From positions 26,600,001 through 26,664,000 of the forward strand of contig NC_087245.1 in NCBI RefSeq assembly GCF_037042905.1: 64,000 nucleotides of DNA, given 5' to 3'. This document shows, piece after piece, positions 1 to 46,162 of this stretch. How positions within the stretch are numbered: the first letter of the stretch is position 1; every line of letters starts with the position of its first letter. A program made the position numbers and the translations under genes. The DNA comes from Lytechinus pictus. Lineage: Eukaryota. Under the pieces are notes generated by a model. It had not been told where the DNA came from, searched no databases, and saw only the letters and a program-made list of their open reading frames with translations.

Positions 1-1855
1 AGAGCCATACATTATCTTGATAGAGTTAACATCTGGAAAAGCTGAGTGTAGGGCATCTCTGACCACCTTTCTCATGCCCTCCAGTGCATACATACTCTTC
101 TGTATGATAACTTTGTGGGCCAGTTGGTAGATTGTGGGCCGGACATTTTCCCCTTTAGGGATAGAGTGACATCCCTCACGGTCTAGAATGTCTTCAAATA
201 TGTCTTGCTCGTCATCTGACAGAACATCTCCTTGTAGAGCCTGCTTCACTGTAGCTCTTTCAAGTGGACTAAGAAACAGGAGGAATGTTTTAAGTAAGTC
301 CTCAGTTGACACTGTCTCCTCTCCAAACATGACGGCTATTAGAAAGGCTGGGGCCAATTGCACAGGGAAAATGTTATGGTCAGAGTATCCCTTTGACAAA
401 ATCCTCCCTATGGACAGCCATTCCTCCAAACCGTATTCAGGGTTCAATGAAGGCACCCTGTAATCCTCGCCATCTGCAGATGTATTAAAAAAGGAGTTCC
501 AAAATGCACTATATGCTTCTCTAGATACTCCTCTGGCATCCACTCCTAACTCCTCTACAAAAGTTACCTTCAACTGGATACTAAGGATCTCAGGCGTCTT
601 GAAAAGTGCAATCATTTCAGCTTGGATATTGCTTCGATGTAAACGGATTTGCAGAGCTTTTGTATCTGAAGGAATTCCCGCATCATCTAACTGAAGATCA
701 TAATCTATGGCAGCTTGTTGAGGGTTTGCACGTTGAATTTGAGCATCAGCTTGTTGTTGGCTTCTTGGTTGAGTGTGATCGCCATTTTCAGTAGCTTGAT
801 GTAGGTTTCCTGGTTGAGTTTGAGCACGATTGTCAGTGGCTTGATGTAGGTTTCCTGGTTGAGTTTGAGCACGATTGTCAGTGGCTTGTTGTAGGTTTCC
901 TGGTTGAGCTTGAGCACGATTGTCAGTGGATTGTTGTAGGTTTCCTGGTTGAGTTTGAGCACGATTGTCAGTAGCTAGTGTTTGGTTTCTTGGTTGAGTG
1001 TGAGCACCATTGTCAGTGGCTTGTGCTTGGTTTGGAGGTTGAATTTCGGCACTAATATTAGTGGATCGTTGTGGGTTTACAGATTGACCTTCAAAGTCCG
1101 AGAATCCCAAATGTATTGGTGGTAATTCACAATCATCATCTATCATGCAACCTCCAACATATTCAAGGTTTAATGGTAATGTTTCATCTAGCTGAGATTG
1201 TGTGCCTTCATCACTTTTTCTCCCAAACTGGACAACATAACAGTCACTTGAATCACTTTCTTCTTCTGGCTGGTTTTCATTTTGATTGTCTGAAGAGGTT
1301 TCTGTCGATGGTTGGTCTCTATTTTTTTTTGGGGTGCACATGTATAGTCTCAAAACACGTGATTTCGCATTTTCATACAGTTCGCCTACAGTGGAATTCC
1401 CCATCTCACATCCTCTAAAATCTTGAATGTCCACTTCGTAGTCTTCAAATTTTACCCCTTTTGGATTTACCATCAGGGAAAAATAGCCCTTTTGCAGTTG
1501 CAAGAAGGTTGTCTAGTCCTTCGCTCTTGTTTGCTCTTATTTCTCTTGTCCCTCCTCCGCCTTGACTCCTCACTTGCTTTAATTCCTTTGTTGCATAGTC
1601 AAAATCCATCCACCCTACTTCTAATTTTCGTGTATCTTTGTGTGCATTGTTACGTTTTTTTGAGGGGGGATTGTCATCAACTGACTTTTTTTTTCTTGAA
1701 AGTCTTGTTCTCAGCCTTTCCAGAAGGCTTGACAATGGTTTTTCGTTTTTAGTTTGACACCTGCAGAATGCCCTTGCAGCGAGTCTATCACCGAAGGCAG
1801 GGAGGTAGTCCTTCAAGCATTCATCATCCATTTCAAGCAAGGCATGGCAGTCAAT
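1..1855 (-). pseudogene. Large exon of HECT-type E3 ubiquitin ligase-like cargo gene (G2E3-like), one frameshift near 1450; runs off the window edge
   Basis: Acceptor ttccttctcag|ATT at 1855. First frame reads IDCHALLEMDD...LFFPDGKSKRGK. After a 1-nt shift, the frame FEDYEVDIQDF... stays open from ~1449 to base 1 and contains IRLHRSNIQAEMIALF...LKVTFVEELGVDARGVSREAYSAFW...WLSIGRILSKG, resembling the HECT N-lobe (E-x-G-x-D-x-x-G-V-x-R-E). Confidence 0.75.
745..1030 (-). repeat. 45-bp coding tandem repeat (15 aa, TDNRAQTQPGNLQQA), ~6 copies
   Basis: ACGATTGTCA recurs at 826, 871, 916 and 961 (45-bp period), in frame with the HECT-like ORF. Confidence 0.9.
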
Positions 1856-2240
1856 CTGAGAAGGAATTAAAAAAAAAACACATCTTTCAGATGGGAGATT
1901 AGAAGCGAATGCTCTTCTATAATACACATGGTAACCATACTTCAATAAACCCCAAATTACTCTTTAACAAGGGCAACGCAAAGCGTAGCATCCTCTAGCC
2001 TGGTACAAATTTACATAACTAGCAATTATTGCAATTTAATGAGCTGTGACCTTTGACCTTTGACTTATATACTCAACAACATTACTTACGTTATCGAATG
2101 GAAACCACATTTTTGCATATATAATTAGCTATTTTGCATATTTGATGAGCAATGACCTTTGACCTACATACATAAGATCATGGGTGAACTGAATAAATTA
2201 TTTGCCCATTGAACCACTGCTGTTTTTATCTGTTCTTTAA

Positions 2241-2954
2241 CCCTAACAGGGCCGGGGGACGTTTCGTGCGATATGTCTGCAACGCAAACAAATTCTACCG
2301 CGAAGTTTCAGGACTTTTTTCTTTCAAACATCGCGCATCTTTTGACACCAAATTTGCAATGCCTGGGCGCACGGTTCCGAAGTTACACAACATTTGGCAC
2401 TTGCACGTCGGACCAAAAACTGCTTTAAAAAACGTGATTTCATGTACATTTTCAATACAAATTGTGTTTTCAGAGAAAATTCATAGATGTATGAATATTT
2501 TTACTTCTATTGATTAAAATTAATTAATTTTATGTTGTTTATGATCGCAAAAGTGTCACCGACAAATTTTGTCGAAAAAAACAATAAAAAAACAAAAGGT
2601 CAAAAAACAAAGAAATACATAAGAAATTTTAAAGACAATAAAATACACAAGAAATTCAGATTGATACGGGAATTTTTTTCAAGTTCATTTGCTAAAAATA
2701 CTACGTAGAGTGTTTAGACAAAAATTAACACTTTTGGACCTTTAAGTGATTTAGAGCAAAATGTCTGATTCCATGCATAAATTAGCATAATTAATTAATA
2801 TAAAATAAAATTCAATAAATTCAGAAAAATTAAATATACAATTTTGTAGATTATGTCACAAGCATCGTGTGCACGCCGATTTTTGTGGCGATTGCGCAGT
2901 TGACCCCCCCCCCCCCTGCTGTGAGATAGCCTAAATAACTCGGCCTCTTTAGGG
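2241..2954. mobile_element. piggyBac-type non-autonomous element (MITE)
   Basis: TTAA|CCCTAACAGGGCCG ... CGGCCTCTTTAGGG|TTAA: inverted CCC/GGG termini with TTAA duplication. Confidence 0.8.
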
Positions 2955-3922
2955 TTAAGCCTAAATATTTGCCTGTCTGTATGTAAACTTACATTACATT
3001 ACTTACAACACATAAAGACTGGTACATTTCTTGGAATATCAGCAAAATATCTTGATTTTTGTAAATATCTGGAAAACAGACATCCTTCACCAAAGTTGAG
3101 TGATCTATGACATTGACTTTTACATATTGGACCAGCATCACATGTAAGCATTGGCTATCAATAAAATTCTCATCAAAATGAATTACTACAATGGAGTCCC
3201 TTACCTCACCTTATAGCTATAAATTGTCGATACCACTTAGGTTTTTTGTTCTGTGAGATTTTGGGTGTAGTTTTATCATTAATTTTCAAGTTTTGATTTC
3301 CAATTTGCCCTTAAAATCTTTGTTTAATTAGAGAATTTTCATCCATCTACTTAAAGAAGAATGTAGCAACATCAACCCTACCTAAAGTACTTGACAAAGT
3401 GCTCGATGTACATGTACATAAACCTATGGTACTATTTTCGAGATGCCCCCTTGGAAGTACCCTTTTTTGCTAATTTCACCAAACAAGGGGGTTGAGCAAC
3501 CACTAGGCTCACCTGATCTCACTTTGCTTTTAAAAACTTCTAAAATTTATACCAAATGGTCACATATCTTTCTACCCATAACAATGGAATATGCAGAGGT
3601 ATAATACTGCAATCACCAAAAGAAATAGGATGCTTGACTTTCTTGTGACAAATCTCCATAGCTAAATGTTTATCTCTACACTTCAACATATGACAGTAAG
3701 CACATTTACATGCAGAGCACTTTCTTTTGGCTTTGGTATTACTTTTGAAAGAAACAAACAGACATTAGCCTGCACACATGAAATCTGTTTGCAGCACTGG
3801 AGTATTATAAAGGCATAACCAGTTTCTTACATCATTTCTGTCACATAATAATGTGCCTTTTCCAATACTTTTGATTCTTTTAAAAAAGGAGATATGAACA
3901 GTATGTATACACAAAGAGCTAC

Positions 3923-4027
3923 CTTATCTTTTTCCATGGCTCTGAGCAAAGCTTCCTCCACTTGTCGTTCCTTCAGGAAATCTATTAAGGATTTCTGTCC
4001 ACCTTTCGCCATGTTTTCGGAGTCCAT
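3923..4027 (-). CDS. First coding exon of the HECT-like cargo gene (N-terminal part of a SAM-like domain)
   Basis: Acceptor cccctgcag| at 4051, ATG at 4027 (alternative 4012), MDSENMAKGGQKSLIDFLKERQVEEALLRAMEKDK, donor AAG|gtagc at 3923. Phase 0 join to IDCHALLEM at 1855 gives LIDFL...EKDKIDCHALLEMDDECLKDYLPAFGDRL, a SAM-like pattern. Confidence 0.7.
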
Positions 4028-7000
4028 ATCCTTAACACAATCTGTAGCTATCTGCAGGGGAATTAAAAAATAAGATTTATAAATATTACATGCAAAAATC
4101 AGGAAGTTTACAATCAATGAAGAAACATAATGTCCAAGTCTTAATTTATCCTTCTCACAAATCTTCAAACATCTAACTAATAAAGAAAGAATGCTTATAC
4201 ATCTTCCAAAGATAGAATGGAAAGAGAATTTGGTAAGATGCATCATGAGTTTTGAGGGGCATCTCAAAAGAAGGAAAAGTCTCATTTAAAAAAAAAAGAA
4301 GAAGAAGAAGAGGACTGTAACTGTAATAGTTGCCATGTGCATTCCATGTTTCCAAGGAAACAATTCAAGTGTGCACATGTGCACTGGGAAAAATAAGGGG
4401 ATTAATGCTCACCTGAGCTTACAGATGAATTCACATGCTCCCTGTGGAGCTGCTAAGGATATGGGACCTCATTGGGGCCACATTACCATTTGCACAACCT
4501 TGCATTACCTATCTCTACAATAATAACACATTTAATTCAAATAACCCCCCCCCAAAAAAAAAAAGAACAACGACAACAAAAACAAAACAAAACAAACAAA
4601 CAAAAAACTGTTACCCAACACGAGTCCATTGGGCTACTCTGGGAACTGTCATGAACAAGTTTTATTCTCCACTTGTATAGGTATCTAAACACTGTAGTAA
4701 TGTTATATTGAATGTTTCAGTTCTGGAACCAAATAATATGCTTGAAATTGCATGACCAAATTCTTGTTTCTCTGGGAGAAATATATATGACTGGAAAGCC
4801 AATACAAAACTAGACAACTTTGCTGGACACAATTTTTCTTCATAACGATTGCAGAAAAAGTTACAGCCCTTTGAATTAGGAGTGTCTGGCAGAATGCGGC
4901 AAAATTGTCACTCCCTAAAATAATGGGGCACACAGGGGTTTCATGGTTGGTCGCACAAAGAGTTACAAATGTGGAAGATGTAAACATGGCCATGAGGATG
5001 GAAAAAGCTGCAGAGGATCCAAGAAAAATCATTCAGGAGTGCATGGAGGCATGGCAGAGAAAGATGGGACATTGTGTAAGACTCCAGTGGGATTGCTTCG
5101 AAAGGGAAAACTCAAAGTCTGTAATTTGGGTATATATTTCTTTTGTGATATCAGTCCTGGAACTTTTTTGACACACCTCGTATATCTGTTCCACTTACTT
5201 GGCATCTGTGGATAGCATCCTTGAAGAAAATGCCTAAGAGCAGGTTGGTGAGTTGAAGGTTAATTCTTCTCAAATGCTGCCCCAATGTTGCCAAGGAAAA
5301 TGCTGAAAATGAAAAAAGGAGGGAACAGTGACGACTAATGATGCATTTTTTTTTGGGGGGGGGGGGCTTAGGTAGTGACTAACAATTACCTACATTTCTT
5401 GAAATATAATAAAATGTTTAGTCTTTCTGTTTTTTGAAGAGGTACATGTATGAACTTACTATAATATGCAACTTGTGAATAATTTACCTGTTGCTGATTC
5501 TCACTTGCAGAGAGTTTGAATTAAGTTACATTGAGCTCCTATCCTCATGGATGATTCCTATAGTCATACATATATCGGTTACAATCTGAAAATGCATTTT
5601 TTTTTTAAATACATGAAACATTTCATTATTTACTTCAATCGCATTATGGTTAATGTCACCACTCCAAGCACTGCCATTTATTTCATCATTGGCATTGAAT
5701 TGCCAGTGACAGCTTACCATTTCCATAGTCTAGTGCCATAGACTTTGTACATGGTGAAGGTATACACATGGAATGAGAGGTGAATCGAACCACACTTTAG
5801 CCCCCTTCTTTTATCTTTAGAACAATCTTAAGACATTTATTGAGTTACATGCATGATTAAAAATTGTACATCCATGGGTAGAATTTTGAATGATTCCTGC
5901 CAAGTTTGGTTACATGTGATCATGCATTTTGACCAAAAAATTGATAAATCCGTTCCCTTTTCCATTTAGCCCCCACCCCTGATCCTAATGAACCCACCCC
6001 TGATGAAGGTGACAATAGCTAATCTTGAGCCTTCTGTTCATTGAGCTTCAAATCAATCCCAGAAAGTCATACCTGAATGAGATTAGCTGGGTGGTCAATG
6101 CTGTGCTGGAGGCTAGGGTGTGTATATATGCATGGGTCACAGCTGCAGAAAACACCCTACAAAAATTGTGCCTAAAAAGAGAATTTAAGAAAAAGTCAGT
6201 AAGTGACCTGTGCAATTAATACCCATATCAGGGCTGCACAAGAATTAGGTCATAAGTTTCAAGAATAAGGTTATGTGCCAACTAATGCCCAGAAAATTGG
6301 ATTGTTTAGGTCTATCCTAAAGGTACGCTACAGCTCTAAGAGTCTATCAGTTCAGTACGTACCATCTACAGGTCCTTTGGATTCAAAATTACTGAGTCTG
6401 TACTCTAATAAGTAATCAATAGTCTGTCCATCATCAAAGGTGTTCAAGTCTAAGATTGAGAAGAGCCACCTACGATTCAACTATCTATTCTTTGCGCCCT
6501 CTCTCATCTGCTGCAATCATATACCAACTGGTCCAGCATCGTATACATCCAGATCCAGAAATCGTTACAAGCGTTTTCAAAACTTTTTCCTAGAACTTAC
6601 ATTCCATTACCCCTCATCTTGCTGCCTATTCTTCTATCTAATTTAATTTCTTATTTCAATTCAGTTTCTTTTTTTAACACTTACACTGAATAGGATTATA
6701 AGAGGAATTATCTTACTTGGAAACTCTGGATAGAACCCTTGTCCTTGTCCTTCAATTGGTGAGCTGAGCCTGAGGGATATTTCTTCTCAAATGCTGCCTC
6801 AGTGTTGCCGAAGAACACGCTGAAGACAGAAAACAAAGAAGCAGTGATGATTAGTGAGGCAATTTTTTTGTTACCAAAATCATTAGCTATTCTTTTTTGG
6901 AAGATGGGAGATGAGTATATGGTCCATGCATGGATGGACCATATACATACATGTATGATATAGGGTCTAGAGTCTACTCCCAACTAACTTATATAGATGT

Positions 7001-7439
7001 AGATCCTACACATGTATTAACACTTATGTATGACATTAGTTTAAGTTTGTCAATGTTTTAGCCAGGCATTAAGTTACTGAAGAAATACAATGAATACAAA
7101 ATTAAAATATTGAAAACACAATCAATAATAATAATAATCCGCTTTTTTATAGTGCTTAAGAGTAAGACATAAGAGGAAGGCCCCAGAACAGGGCGCTTCC
7201 GATGGGGACTGCAGTCTGCTAATTGAGCAGTCTTAAAATTAACGTTACACAGATCTAGAACTGATCGCGAAAAAGAGCAAATCTGTTAAATTAGCTGTTT
7301 GTTCACTTTTACATTGAATGACCCGGCCATAAATAAGTAAAAGAAGTGAACTAACCTTCAATCCATCGCGATTGCAACCGGCAACTTCTGGTTGAATTCA
7401 GTCGATCTACCGTAGACGTAACTTAGTAGTACATACGTA

Positions 7440-7560
7440 CAAGGCCTGGCATGGCATGGCCGCCTGGCTATATACGCTATTACTGCATTAAGCAGCGAGC
7501 GCGCTAGCGCCAGCGCGCGCAGTCTAGTCTAGCCTCGCGGGTATTATGTTGTTAACCCGT
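7440..7560 (-). promoter_or_regulatory. GC/CpG-rich patch, candidate promoter of the cargo gene
   Basis: Local CpG cluster (GCGAGCGCGCTAGCGCCAGCGCGCGC) just inside the subterminal repeats; a minus-strand donor GAAG|gttagt lies near 7355. Confidence 0.35.
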
Positions 7561-7632
7561 GGACTACTGAATTCTCTCACTCCCATAGGCTTAATACAGG
7601 GACCACCCGGTTCCAGTATGCAATGGACTTAT

Positions 7633-7957
7633 ACGAGATACTATCTCATTAAAACGAGATACTATGTCGTTTTAACGAGATACTATCTCATTAAAACGAG
7701 ATACTATCTCATTAAAACGCGATAACTATCTCATTAAAACGAGATACTATGTCGTTTTAACGAGATACTATCTCGTTTTAACGAGATACTATGTCGTTTT
7801 AACGAGATACTATCTCATTAAAACGAGATAACTATCTCGTTTTAACGAGATACTATTTCGTTTTAACGAGATACTATCTCATTAAAACGAGATACTATGT
7901 CGTTTTAACGAGATACTATCTCATTAAAACGAGATAACTATCTCGTTTTAACGAGAT
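7633..7957. repeat. Subterminal tandem array of ~15 imperfectly palindromic 21-bp units
   Basis: ACGAGATACTATCTCATTAAA / ACGAGATACTATGTCGTTTTA repeating at 7633, 7654, 7675 and onward; no unique spacers. Confidence 0.95.
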
Positions 7958-8165
7958 AAAAATATTTTTACCATGTCCCTTCCCGGGCTCCGTACATTAG
8001 GCACTATGTAAGCGAGTATAATTATTTTCTATTGTATAATGAGAACGAATTGTATAAAAAATTTGGATATATACATATTTTTTTTGGTCAAACCACAAAT
8101 GTGCCTAATGGACATCTTGATGCATAGCAAGTAAATTGGCTTGAATTGAAGTAGATGTGATTTAA

Positions 8166-8613: not shown

Positions 8614-8801
8614 ATGGTTATTACAGGAGGTGGAGCTATTATTCACAGAGGCTCAGTGGGGTTATTACCTATCACTTTTACGTGATCTTCTATGGCCTGG
8701 TGGTGTATTTAATCCAAAGGAACGAGAAACTAAGACACCGGACGAGATCAATCAAACCAAGGCAGATGCACTCCATGAGCTTACTCATAATCCTGCTGCC
8801 G
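8614..8801 (+). CDS. SNX19: Sorting nexin (SNX19-like), antepenultimate exon, Nexin_C/PXC domain
   Basis: tag|A TGG...GCC G|gttagt; WLLQEVELLFTEAQWGYYLSLLRDLLWPGGVFNPKERETKTPDEINQTKADALHEL. The W-x-x-Y-L...WPGG motif is typical of SNX13/14/19/25 C-termini and closest to SNX19 as I recall it. Confidence 0.85.
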
Positions 8802-8816
8802 GTTAGTTTGGAATTC

Positions 8817-9040
8817 TCATTTCATTTTATTTCATCTTGTTCCATTTCATTTCTTTTCATTTTATCTGATTCCTTTCCATTTCAATTTGTTTCATTTCAT
8901 CCATTTTCAATTTCACTTTCATTTATTTTATTTTGTGTATTTTCATCTTCATTTGTTTTCATTTTCAATTTAATTTTTGCATTCATATTCATTTTCGTTT
9001 CCACTTTCATTTTCATCTTCATTTTCATTTGTTTTTCTCA
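8817..9040. repeat. Low-complexity (TTTCAT)n-like tract
   Basis: Degenerate TTTCA/TTCAT repeats in the intron. Confidence 0.85.
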
Positions 9041-45819: not shown

Positions 45820-46162
45820 TTAATAATAGATAATAGTAACATTTATATAGCACTTATCACTTTGTGTCTCTAAGTGCTTTACATACATATGATTACCCCG
45901 GTCACCAGATCCTGGCACGCCCACACACAATATATGCACTTTCTCCACTCTCCGGGGAGCATTCCAACAAGAGTTATAACACTCAATTGCTAGGCATACC
46001 CCATAGGCTTTCGCTCCAGGTACCCATTTAACACTTGGGTGGAGAGTGGCAAAGTGTTGATTAATGCCTTGCCAAAGGACGCTAGGCCATGATGGGATTG
46101 AAACACACGACCCTCTGATTTCAAGGTGAGAGTCAGAACCACTACACCATGACGCTTCCACA
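45820..46162 (-). mobile_element. tRNA-derived SINE
   Basis: Minus strand has an A box-like TGGTGTAGTGG, a B box-like GTTTCAATCC, a CTCCACCCAAGTGTTAAATGGGTACC core and an (ATT)-type tail. Confidence 0.85.

Follow-up and report, generated by a model that had tools for sequence, protein, structure and literature searches.

The window analysed here, a stretch of 64,000 nucleotides from Lytechinus pictus (G000:C1:26600001-26664000, where C1 is NC_087245.1), opens inside an IS3EU/GingerRoot cut-and-paste DNA transposon, of which window positions 1–7994 are the right part. The full element measures 19,946 bp (G000:C1:26588049-26607994) and carries two convergent genes, one for a transposase and the other for a protein with a HECT domain preceded by SAM-like and ubiquitin-like domains. 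Window positions are counted from 1; features to the left are given in contig coordinates and come from 40 kb examined beyond the window start, and searches for related copies covered 812 Mb of genome. An earlier note on this DNA had proposed an intronic transposon arm delivering its own ubiquitin ligase. The framework of the element is as follows.

1–7994, no strand: right 8 kb of the IS3EU/GingerRoot transposon, the left remainder being found outside the window
5935–7994, no strand: right terminal inverted repeat (TIR), about 2.06 kb, with tip TACGGAGCCCGGGAAG
7633–7958, no strand: subterminal array of 15.4 units of 21 bp, built on the near-palindrome ACGAGATACTATCTCGT (repeat analysis)
7995–8000, plus strand: 6-bp target site duplication (TSD) CATTAG, with a second copy directly before the left end
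G000:C1:26588049-26591763: left TIR, in which a dispersed repeat of ~290 bp and an additional 1,440-bp segment are found
8614–8801, plus strand: host sorting-nexin exon (Nexin_C, Pfam E 1e-8), with an in-frame phase-2 splice to the host exon whose end lies at G000:C1:26587700

The right terminus (...GGGCTCCGTA) lies at 7994 and is followed by CATTAG, and the left TIR (TACGGAGCCC) begins at G000:C1:26588049 with CATTAG directly before it. In the 40-kb left stretch TACGGAGC occurs only once, at 26588049 and preceded by CATTAG; the probability of a 6-bp TSD matching by chance is about 4e-4. The ends, TACGG...CCGTA, are of the TAY..RTA type. Thus the terminus, the hexamer and the palindromic array of the earlier note are all present, and the left TIR with CATTAG that it told the reader to look for was found; the terminus it had seen as a tip only is in fact the end of a TIR of some 2 kb. 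The TIRs are 97–99% identical, the two arms aligning in blocks of 131 bp (97.7%), 615 bp (96.9%) and 1,236 bp (99.1%), with two additional segments in the left arm. The 21-bp units are probable transposase-binding sites, as a prediction. A sister family, referred to as family B (the window element being family A), has nearly the same tip and a different 20-bp unit at the position of the array, and its TIRs are only 350–430 bp long, so the 2-kb TIR duplication is a feature of family A. A search of five loci against Rfam gave no match.

Exons of a PXA-PX-Nexin_C sorting nexin gene lie on both sides of the element and are spliced in frame, and the element is therefore intronic, as the earlier note had supposed from the right-hand exon. 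The host intron would measure ~961 bp without the element and measures ~20.9 kb with it. In addition to Nexin_C, the host gene matches the profiles of PXA (E 2.5e-30) and, as a fragment, PX (E 8e-4); no RGS domain was matched among the 41 of 46 reading frames scanned, a scan that short exons can escape. An SNX19-like gene, as the earlier note called the host exon, would have PXA, PX and Nexin_C and lack RGS, and the host is a candidate for this type. A CATTTT-type simple repeat of ordinary character occupies window positions 8820–9030 of the host intron.

The transposase gene lies on the plus strand in two exons (ATG at 26592303 to 26593124, and 26595115 to the stop codon at 26595444) and codes for 383 residues with no internal stop and the catalytic triad D131, D190 and E228 (DD37E), which supplies the integrase-core reading frame that was to be sought left of the window. 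It matches the Pfam families rva_4 (E 6.6e-27) and Clr5, a helix-turn-helix-like N-terminus (E 5e-5), and the same scan gave no match to the HHCC family. When compared by eye, its motifs WH[IV]D[GS]YDKLKP, CIDG[FY]SR, GTEN and NQRIExxW agree with the printed sequences of IS3EU-1_DR1p and IS3EU-1_CGi_2p; the latter label suggests a further protein in the Repbase entry.

The element is mobile. A 16-mer of its end occurs 113 times in the genome, compared to none for the reversed control, and 10 of 11 dispersed, two-ended short family-A copies have perfect 6-bp TSDs, all of them different. The family-A transposase itself was found in the assembly at this locus only; the next matches, 54% identical, are those of family B, with 14 transposase loci, 13 of which have a HECT gene. 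Thirteen of the 14 were examined at the sequence level for element ends: 11 are two-ended, and 10 of these 11 have perfect 6-bp TSDs, two of the ten probably being one insertion assembled twice (G000:C28:649481-662300 and C29:110702-123525, with reverse-complementary TSDs and a shared C-lobe stop). In these sister elements the HECT gene lies between their own TIRs, with TSDs that differ from one copy to another, and a 6.9-kb family-B copy on C15 lacks the HECT gene and has a perfect TSD. A resident host gene is ruled out by the TIRs and TSD and by dispersed copies whose TSDs differ, and here the judgement of the earlier note stands. Most of the 113 family-A ends are found on contigs C27 and C104 (L077 and L078) in tandem arrays with a period of ~4–8 kb and constant flanks (CACACA and TTTCTC), which have the appearance of a satellite-like amplification of non-autonomous copies and have no Rfam match. 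A family-A-ended element at L075 (G000:C3:48991850-48996627) contains rearranged, 99%-identical copies of the intergenic segment, and ~25 degenerate integrase-like fragments are found on one strand within 35 kb at G000:C4:22365000-22399500.

The HECT gene is read from the minus strand, its catalytic Cys codon lying at about 26599770-72 and its stop codon at 26599665. Its coding parts are the following.

3923–4051, minus strand: first coding exon, ATG at 4027 or 4012, first half of the SAM-like domain
1–1855 and on to G000:C1:26599665, minus strand: second coding exon, with the remainder of the SAM-like domain, a basic helix, the ubiquitin-like domain, a low-complexity linker and HECT
1754–1855, minus strand: second half of the SAM-like domain with a P-x-[YF]-G-D-R motif, a predicted transposase-docking surface, modelled on the sister-family protein
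1447–1449, minus strand: 1-nt insertion that shifts the frame, missing from contigs of all four public runs compared
1333–1630, minus strand: ubiquitin-like (beta-grasp) domain RKLEVGW...RLYMCT according to the sister-family model; the frameshift falls inside it
749–1024, minus strand: 45-bp (15-residue) repeat in 6.1 units, a Gln/Thr/Asn-rich linker that is not conserved in homologues
1–660, minus strand: the part of the HECT N-lobe that lies in the window

The two coding exons (4051–3923 and 1855 to beyond position 1) have AG/GT signals and are joined in phase 0, just as the earlier note drew them, and homologues carry both halves of the SAM-like domain contiguously; the frame, which that note took to be uninterrupted, is broken by the 1-nt insertion. 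Its Gln-rich repeats correspond to the 45-bp repeat, and the catalytic Cys that it expected further left was found in the C-lobe (...AHTCGPMLELP...MDIA*). The HECT assignment holds for the complete domain (PF00632, E 6e-10, 39.7 bits, cut-off 23.9 bits), Pfam giving no match in the in-window HECT part alone or in the N-terminal 178 residues. The AHTC of the element aligns with that of NEDD4L; among 86 aligned homologues, 80 have the catalytic Cys and 80 have Met, Phe, Ile or Leu at position -4, and 58 of the 61 members of a further set (A3) match the HECT profile. HECT ligases have a hydrophobic residue at -4 from the C-terminus. An AlphaFold2 model of an intact sister-family protein, with a mean predicted local distance difference test score (pLDDT) of 83, consists of a helical N-terminus, a beta-grasp domain, a disordered stretch equivalent to the linker and a HECT fold for which Foldseek finds that of HUWE1 (E 4e-12). 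The second gene of the transposon is thus shown to encode a HECT domain with a catalytic Cys and a C-terminal hydrophobic tail, and its ligase activity is a prediction. It belongs to a large protein family, with 1,201 clusters at 50% identity (E<=1e-10) and fish among the named matches; sister-family proteins have matches of 99–100% identity recorded for Lytechinus pictus.

The middle domain, which the earlier note called possibly ubiquitin-like, has a ubiquitin-like fold in the sister-family model (pLDDT 88.5), and almost all of the structural matches listed are ubiquitin-like. The best of them is the Polycomb ubiquitin-like domain (ULD) 5fr6 (Z 9.0, root-mean-square deviation 2.4, 79 aligned residues), ATG12, NLE1 and others lying within 1 Z of it; Foldseek places LC3A first (E 2.4e-3). 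The N-terminal domain is probably a SAM, in keeping with the SAM-like N-terminus of the earlier note, with scores that all remain below threshold: a profile search against PDB gave ANKS4B (E 0.025), SANS (0.092) and tankyrase-1 (0.77), 5 of its 11 rows apparently being SAM chains and the top one a repeat protein named E8, and Pfam SAM_2 was matched in 1 of 19 sequences at a sub-threshold E of 0.041. SAM clusters of an atlas score 0.81–0.82 against this domain, which serves as a lead only, and an atlas search with the N-terminal 215 residues returned only unnamed eukaryotic clusters, mollusc and chordate ones included.

In the genome, all 15 other matches to the HECT N-lobe have a transposase within 22 kb, in 14 cases convergent and in one (C11) on the same strand. 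For C13, C11, C4, C1c and C8c the searches for TIRs and TSDs found no ends, so those gene pairs rest on proximity. Among 45 metagenome HECT loci, which include some near-duplicates, a convergent transposase is found in 12, or in 12 of the 19 with at least 1.9 kb downstream. At L090 the whole element is present, 6.05 kb long and with TATGG..CCATA ends and a CAAATG TSD. According to distances, five sister pairs are identical for both genes. In trees, from which L090 and L097 were left out as near-duplicates (as in the Mantel test below) and C4 in addition, four sister pairs are starred in both genes; for families A and B the pairing has weak support in the HECT tree (88/71), and in the transposase tree a four-member clade leaves it unresolved. 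HECT occurs in both of the deep transposase clades.

Between families A and B synonymous substitutions are saturated, and nonsynonymous distances are 0.48 for HECT and 0.41 for the transposase; in two close metagenome pairs the HECT omega is 0.31 and 0.37. Among the inserted family-B copies both genes drift in a near-neutral fashion (omega ~0.75 for HECT and 0.67 for the transposase). This combination of constraint between families and near-neutral drift among inserted copies means, as we infer, that selection acts during transposition and not on resident copies. These data bear on the idea that HECT is inert cargo, a captured host gene that hitch-hikes in the manner of the gene fragments in Pack-MULE or GingerRoot elements. 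The frameshift in the window copy, the omega of ~0.75 and the HECT-less 6.9-kb copy with its perfect TSD would all fit such a passenger, yet the drift among inserted copies holds for the transposase as well, and the purifying selection between families, the conserved catalytic Cys and the lack of a resident parent gene among the matches all speak against it. The selection analysis largely refutes this explanation, which we consider very improbable. The HECT gene has long been the second gene of this transposon lineage, under purifying selection, and is not recently captured cargo; in view of the predicted complex described below, it probably contributes to the working of the transposon instead of merely travelling with it.

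The TIRs also hold non-coding exons, listed here for the right arm.

7356–7560, minus strand: CpG-rich promoter-like region (7380–7620: GC 52%, observed/expected CpG 1.05) and first non-coding exon U1, donor at 7356/7355
6717–6819, minus strand: non-coding exon U2, inside the TIR, bounded by AG..GT, in a spliced contig of run X15
6075–6171, minus strand: non-coding exon U3, inside the TIR, joined in run X15 to the transposase-exon acceptor (left-arm copy)
5199–5302, minus strand: predicted non-coding exon U4, a ~79% duplicate of U2 present in the right arm only, with no read support seen

Four public runs from four studies were compared with the window, 40 of the 76 differences being listed. 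One of them, X15, is the only one that behaves like RNA, its RNA nature being the guess of a tool even if the contig is spliced. Its contig (depth 110) has joints 7356–6819 and 6717–6171, and from 6075 it runs to a loose end, the transposase-exon acceptor; all of these joints are GT-AG. Since inner TIR sequence is confined in the assembly to the two arms and one truncated copy on C19, this spliced contig places the start of the transposase mRNA in the CpG-rich TIR region and shows it to be spliced via three TIR-encoded exons. Because the right arm presents the same promoter and exons to the HECT gene, they likely drive that gene there and would co-express it with the transposase. No dataset listed as RNA covers the HECT stretch, and no spliced HECT joint appears among the rows listed for the four runs, one of them RNA-like, which says nothing either way.

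The left arm carries a ~290-bp dispersed repeat with an AAT tract inserted in its array (G000:C1:26588180-26588466), related copies of which are found in the host intron and at window ~46016–46161. The 1,440-bp segment (G000:C1:26589093-26590532) lies in the U1–U2 intron of the left arm only and is not a dispersed repeat among the loci examined; loose ends that match it in runs X2 and X18 indicate that the asymmetry of the arms is common to other animals. Run X15 has 34 A>G differences, compared to 4–6 in the other three runs, in the region 5935–6811 and beyond (L062:7035-7911), with 32 differences in a single contig inside the TIR. If the two 2-kb TIRs pair in host pre-mRNA, the resulting double-stranded RNA could be edited by ADAR and give rise to this excess, which we take as a hint only.

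The N-terminal 178 residues of the family-B HECT protein were modelled together with the family-B transposase (392 residues). The predicted complex has an interface score (ipSAE) of 0.64 (0.65, 0.64 and 0.64 in individual runs), compared to 0.00 for the best of three controls, with contact agreement of at least 71% and a partner pLDDT of at least 69. Of solved pairs, 51 of 78 reach the docking mark that it passes, compared to 2 of 108 mismatched ones (39 of 65 and 2 of 126, respectively, in eukaryotes). In the model the P-x-Y-G-D-R helix and the basic helix that follows it contact transposase residues 266–286 and 343–370; both surfaces are conserved in the window element's own proteins, and on the SAM side the interface columns exceed the others in conservation (0.52 versus 0.39). 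Among 17 two-gene loci a clear SAM is found in three, all with the matching motif at the transposase C-terminus; a fourth (L084) has the motif, its SAM being cut by the contig edge. The model suggests that the SAM-like domain binds the C-terminus of the transposase. We know of no solved complex with a comparable interface, no search for one having been made. In a sub-lineage (L091, L095, L096, L097, P0008 and P0010) the ubiquitin-like domain is kept and another N-terminus replaces the SAM-like domain; in L091, L096 and L097 the C-terminus of the transposase has diverged as well, and docking may here rely on a different module.

Taken together, we consider it rather probable that the HECT protein serves transposition as a dedicated accessory factor in a two-gene IS3EU transposon, its function being a prediction. 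In the mechanism that we envisage, the transposase mRNA starts at the TIR promoter and the identical promoter of the right TIR would drive HECT, leading to co-expression; the SAM-like GDR helix would then dock on the C-terminal helical region of the transposase, and the ligase so recruited to the transpososome may ubiquitinate the transpososome or adjacent targets. The likeliest single step, if a doubtful one, would be the ubiquitin-driven removal of transposase from the finished integration complex, letting host repair reach the 6-nt gaps. Comparable clearing of such complexes is provided by ClpX acting on MuA and by the proteasomal removal of retroviral integrase. A more far-reaching reading would be that the IS3EU elements of animals have a HECT ligase dedicated to them, which binds their own transposase via a SAM-like domain and ubiquitinates the transpososome, as an enzyme for its disassembly or remodelling, the two family-A genes sharing one TIR-duplicated promoter; we would tentatively put its probability at about 40%. 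The suggestion in the earlier note that the ligase acts on the element's own transposase gains support from the predicted complex.

Several observations weigh against the HECT protein as an accessory factor of this kind. The docking mark is also passed by 7 of 44 blind neighbour pairs; the modelled SAM is that of the sister family and lacks its first ~25 residues; and the transposase-side interface columns are not above their neighbours in conservation (0.61 versus 0.61 and 0.67 versus 0.63). Of the 17 two-gene loci, 13 have neither a detectable SAM of this type nor the motif (C4 being partial), and the four loci with the motif belong to one clade and were found with profiles built from relatives, which makes them a single event and the comparison partly circular. 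One HECT-less, stop-containing transposase keeps the docking motif, and of four further loci with only a HECT C-lobe just one has a transposase nearby. Nor do all such transposases have a ligase: in three further families checked, no HECT was found within 13.5–34 kb downstream. At depth, HECT distances show no correlation with transposase distances (Mantel rho 0.04, p 0.32), and the deep branches of the HECT tree are not resolved. Finally, the window copy is frameshifted at ~1447, ending its product at 171 residues instead of ~764, and 8 of the 10 listed coding differences from the runs are non-synonymous; at least two of the listed differences return the family-consensus residue. Because the inserted base is missing from the runs and the differences are mostly non-synonymous, the assembled HECT copy is a decaying allele or carries local errors, and other animals keep an open frame.

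The docking model is also in line with a counter-defence tethered to the transposase, in which TIR-bound transposase would serve as a landing pad and the ligase would ubiquitinate host chromatin or silencing factors at the element or its target; the SAM and a RAWUL-like fold could mimic modules of the Polycomb complex PRC1. The best match of the ubiquitin-like domain to the Polycomb ULD points in this direction, as do the score for the Ring1B RAWUL (Z 7.8) and the fungal IS3EU elements whose TET/JBP genes are thought to counter methylation silencing (PMC12730594). However, these Z values lie within 1 of those for ATG12, NLE1 and other ubiquitin-like domains, and a common fold is no proof of function; we regard this alternative as unlikely. 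Predicted docking, the same leader exons in both arms and low copy numbers (one family-A and 14 family-B transposase loci) would also suit a self-limiting switch, with the ligase degrading free transposase, thereby capping copy number and host damage, and the shared TIR promoter setting the ratio of the two proteins. A pure repressor, however, should be lost by faster-moving deletion variants, whereas HECT is kept in 13 of the 14 family-B loci and conserved in fish, mollusc and echinoderm relatives; such a switch appears quite improbable.

IS3EU/GingerRoot elements are defined by TA..TA ends, 6-bp TSDs and an IS3-like DDE core (Kojima and Bao, 2023, PMC10045372). The window element shares the termini, the TSD length and an integrase-like DDE core with them and differs in its size of 20 kb, in TIRs of ~2 kb compared to 100–150 bp in GingerRoot (Cerbin et al., 2019, PMC6839031), in its spliced TIR leader exons and in its HECT second gene; the word 'ubiquitin' has no match in the texts of PMC10045372 and PMC6839031 as searched, nor in the searched part of a survey of DDE transposases (10.1101/2021.09.26.461848). 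The fungal TET+ IS3EU elements (Kojima, 2025, PMC12730594) have TAYGG..CCRTA ends, a 6-bp TSD and alpha-kinase and TET/JBP genes. They resemble the window element in ends, TSD and a gene for a protein-modifying enzyme (alpha-kinase) opposite to the transposase, whereas their accessory enzymes are alpha-kinase and TET/JBP in place of HECT; within the portions searched, 'ubiquitin' was unmatched in the text and 'HECT' in the supplement. Maize MuDR also has two genes with promoters in its TIRs, and its helper MURB is needed for insertion (PMC10401008); the likeness is one of layout only, since the MuDR transposase superfamily is unrelated and MURB is not described as an enzyme in the excerpts of that paper. 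The VTD/OTU deubiquitinases encoded by Helitrons (PMC9741609) provide another animal DNA transposon with a ubiquitin-system enzyme. They remove ubiquitin and lie within the Helitron reading frame, whereas the enzyme of the window element would add it, to judge from its sequence, and has a separate gene. Cellular HECT ligases (NEDD4L, HUWE1, UBR5 and E6AP; PMC2837046) share the bilobed HECT fold, the AHTC and the hydrophobic residue at -4, whereas the element HECT is only 13–19% identical to solved HECT domains, has a SAM-like and ubiquitin-like N-terminus and belongs to a very large, fast-diverging family. Our literature searches, with Repbase records, bioRxiv supplements and the Kojima 2019 review outside their scope, found no paper on a pairing of IS3EU with HECT, to judge from titles and the opening lines of abstracts. 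The new points are the TIR-encoded leader exons on the transposase and the predicted docking surface.

How eukaryotes disassemble the very stable transposase complexes left after integration has been little studied, and the same is true of how transposons handle host protein quality control. The predicted docking of the GDR helix on the transposase C-terminus makes the question testable by a few point mutants, and, with sister copies that have moved recently and kept open frames, a two-component transposition assay appears feasible. The element also offers a functional lead for the large unannotated HECT family. The multi-copy HECT 'expansions' of aquatic animals may be transposon genes and, if the more far-reaching reading is true, thousands of the HECT genes annotated as 'uncharacterized' in fish and invertebrates would be parts of transposons.

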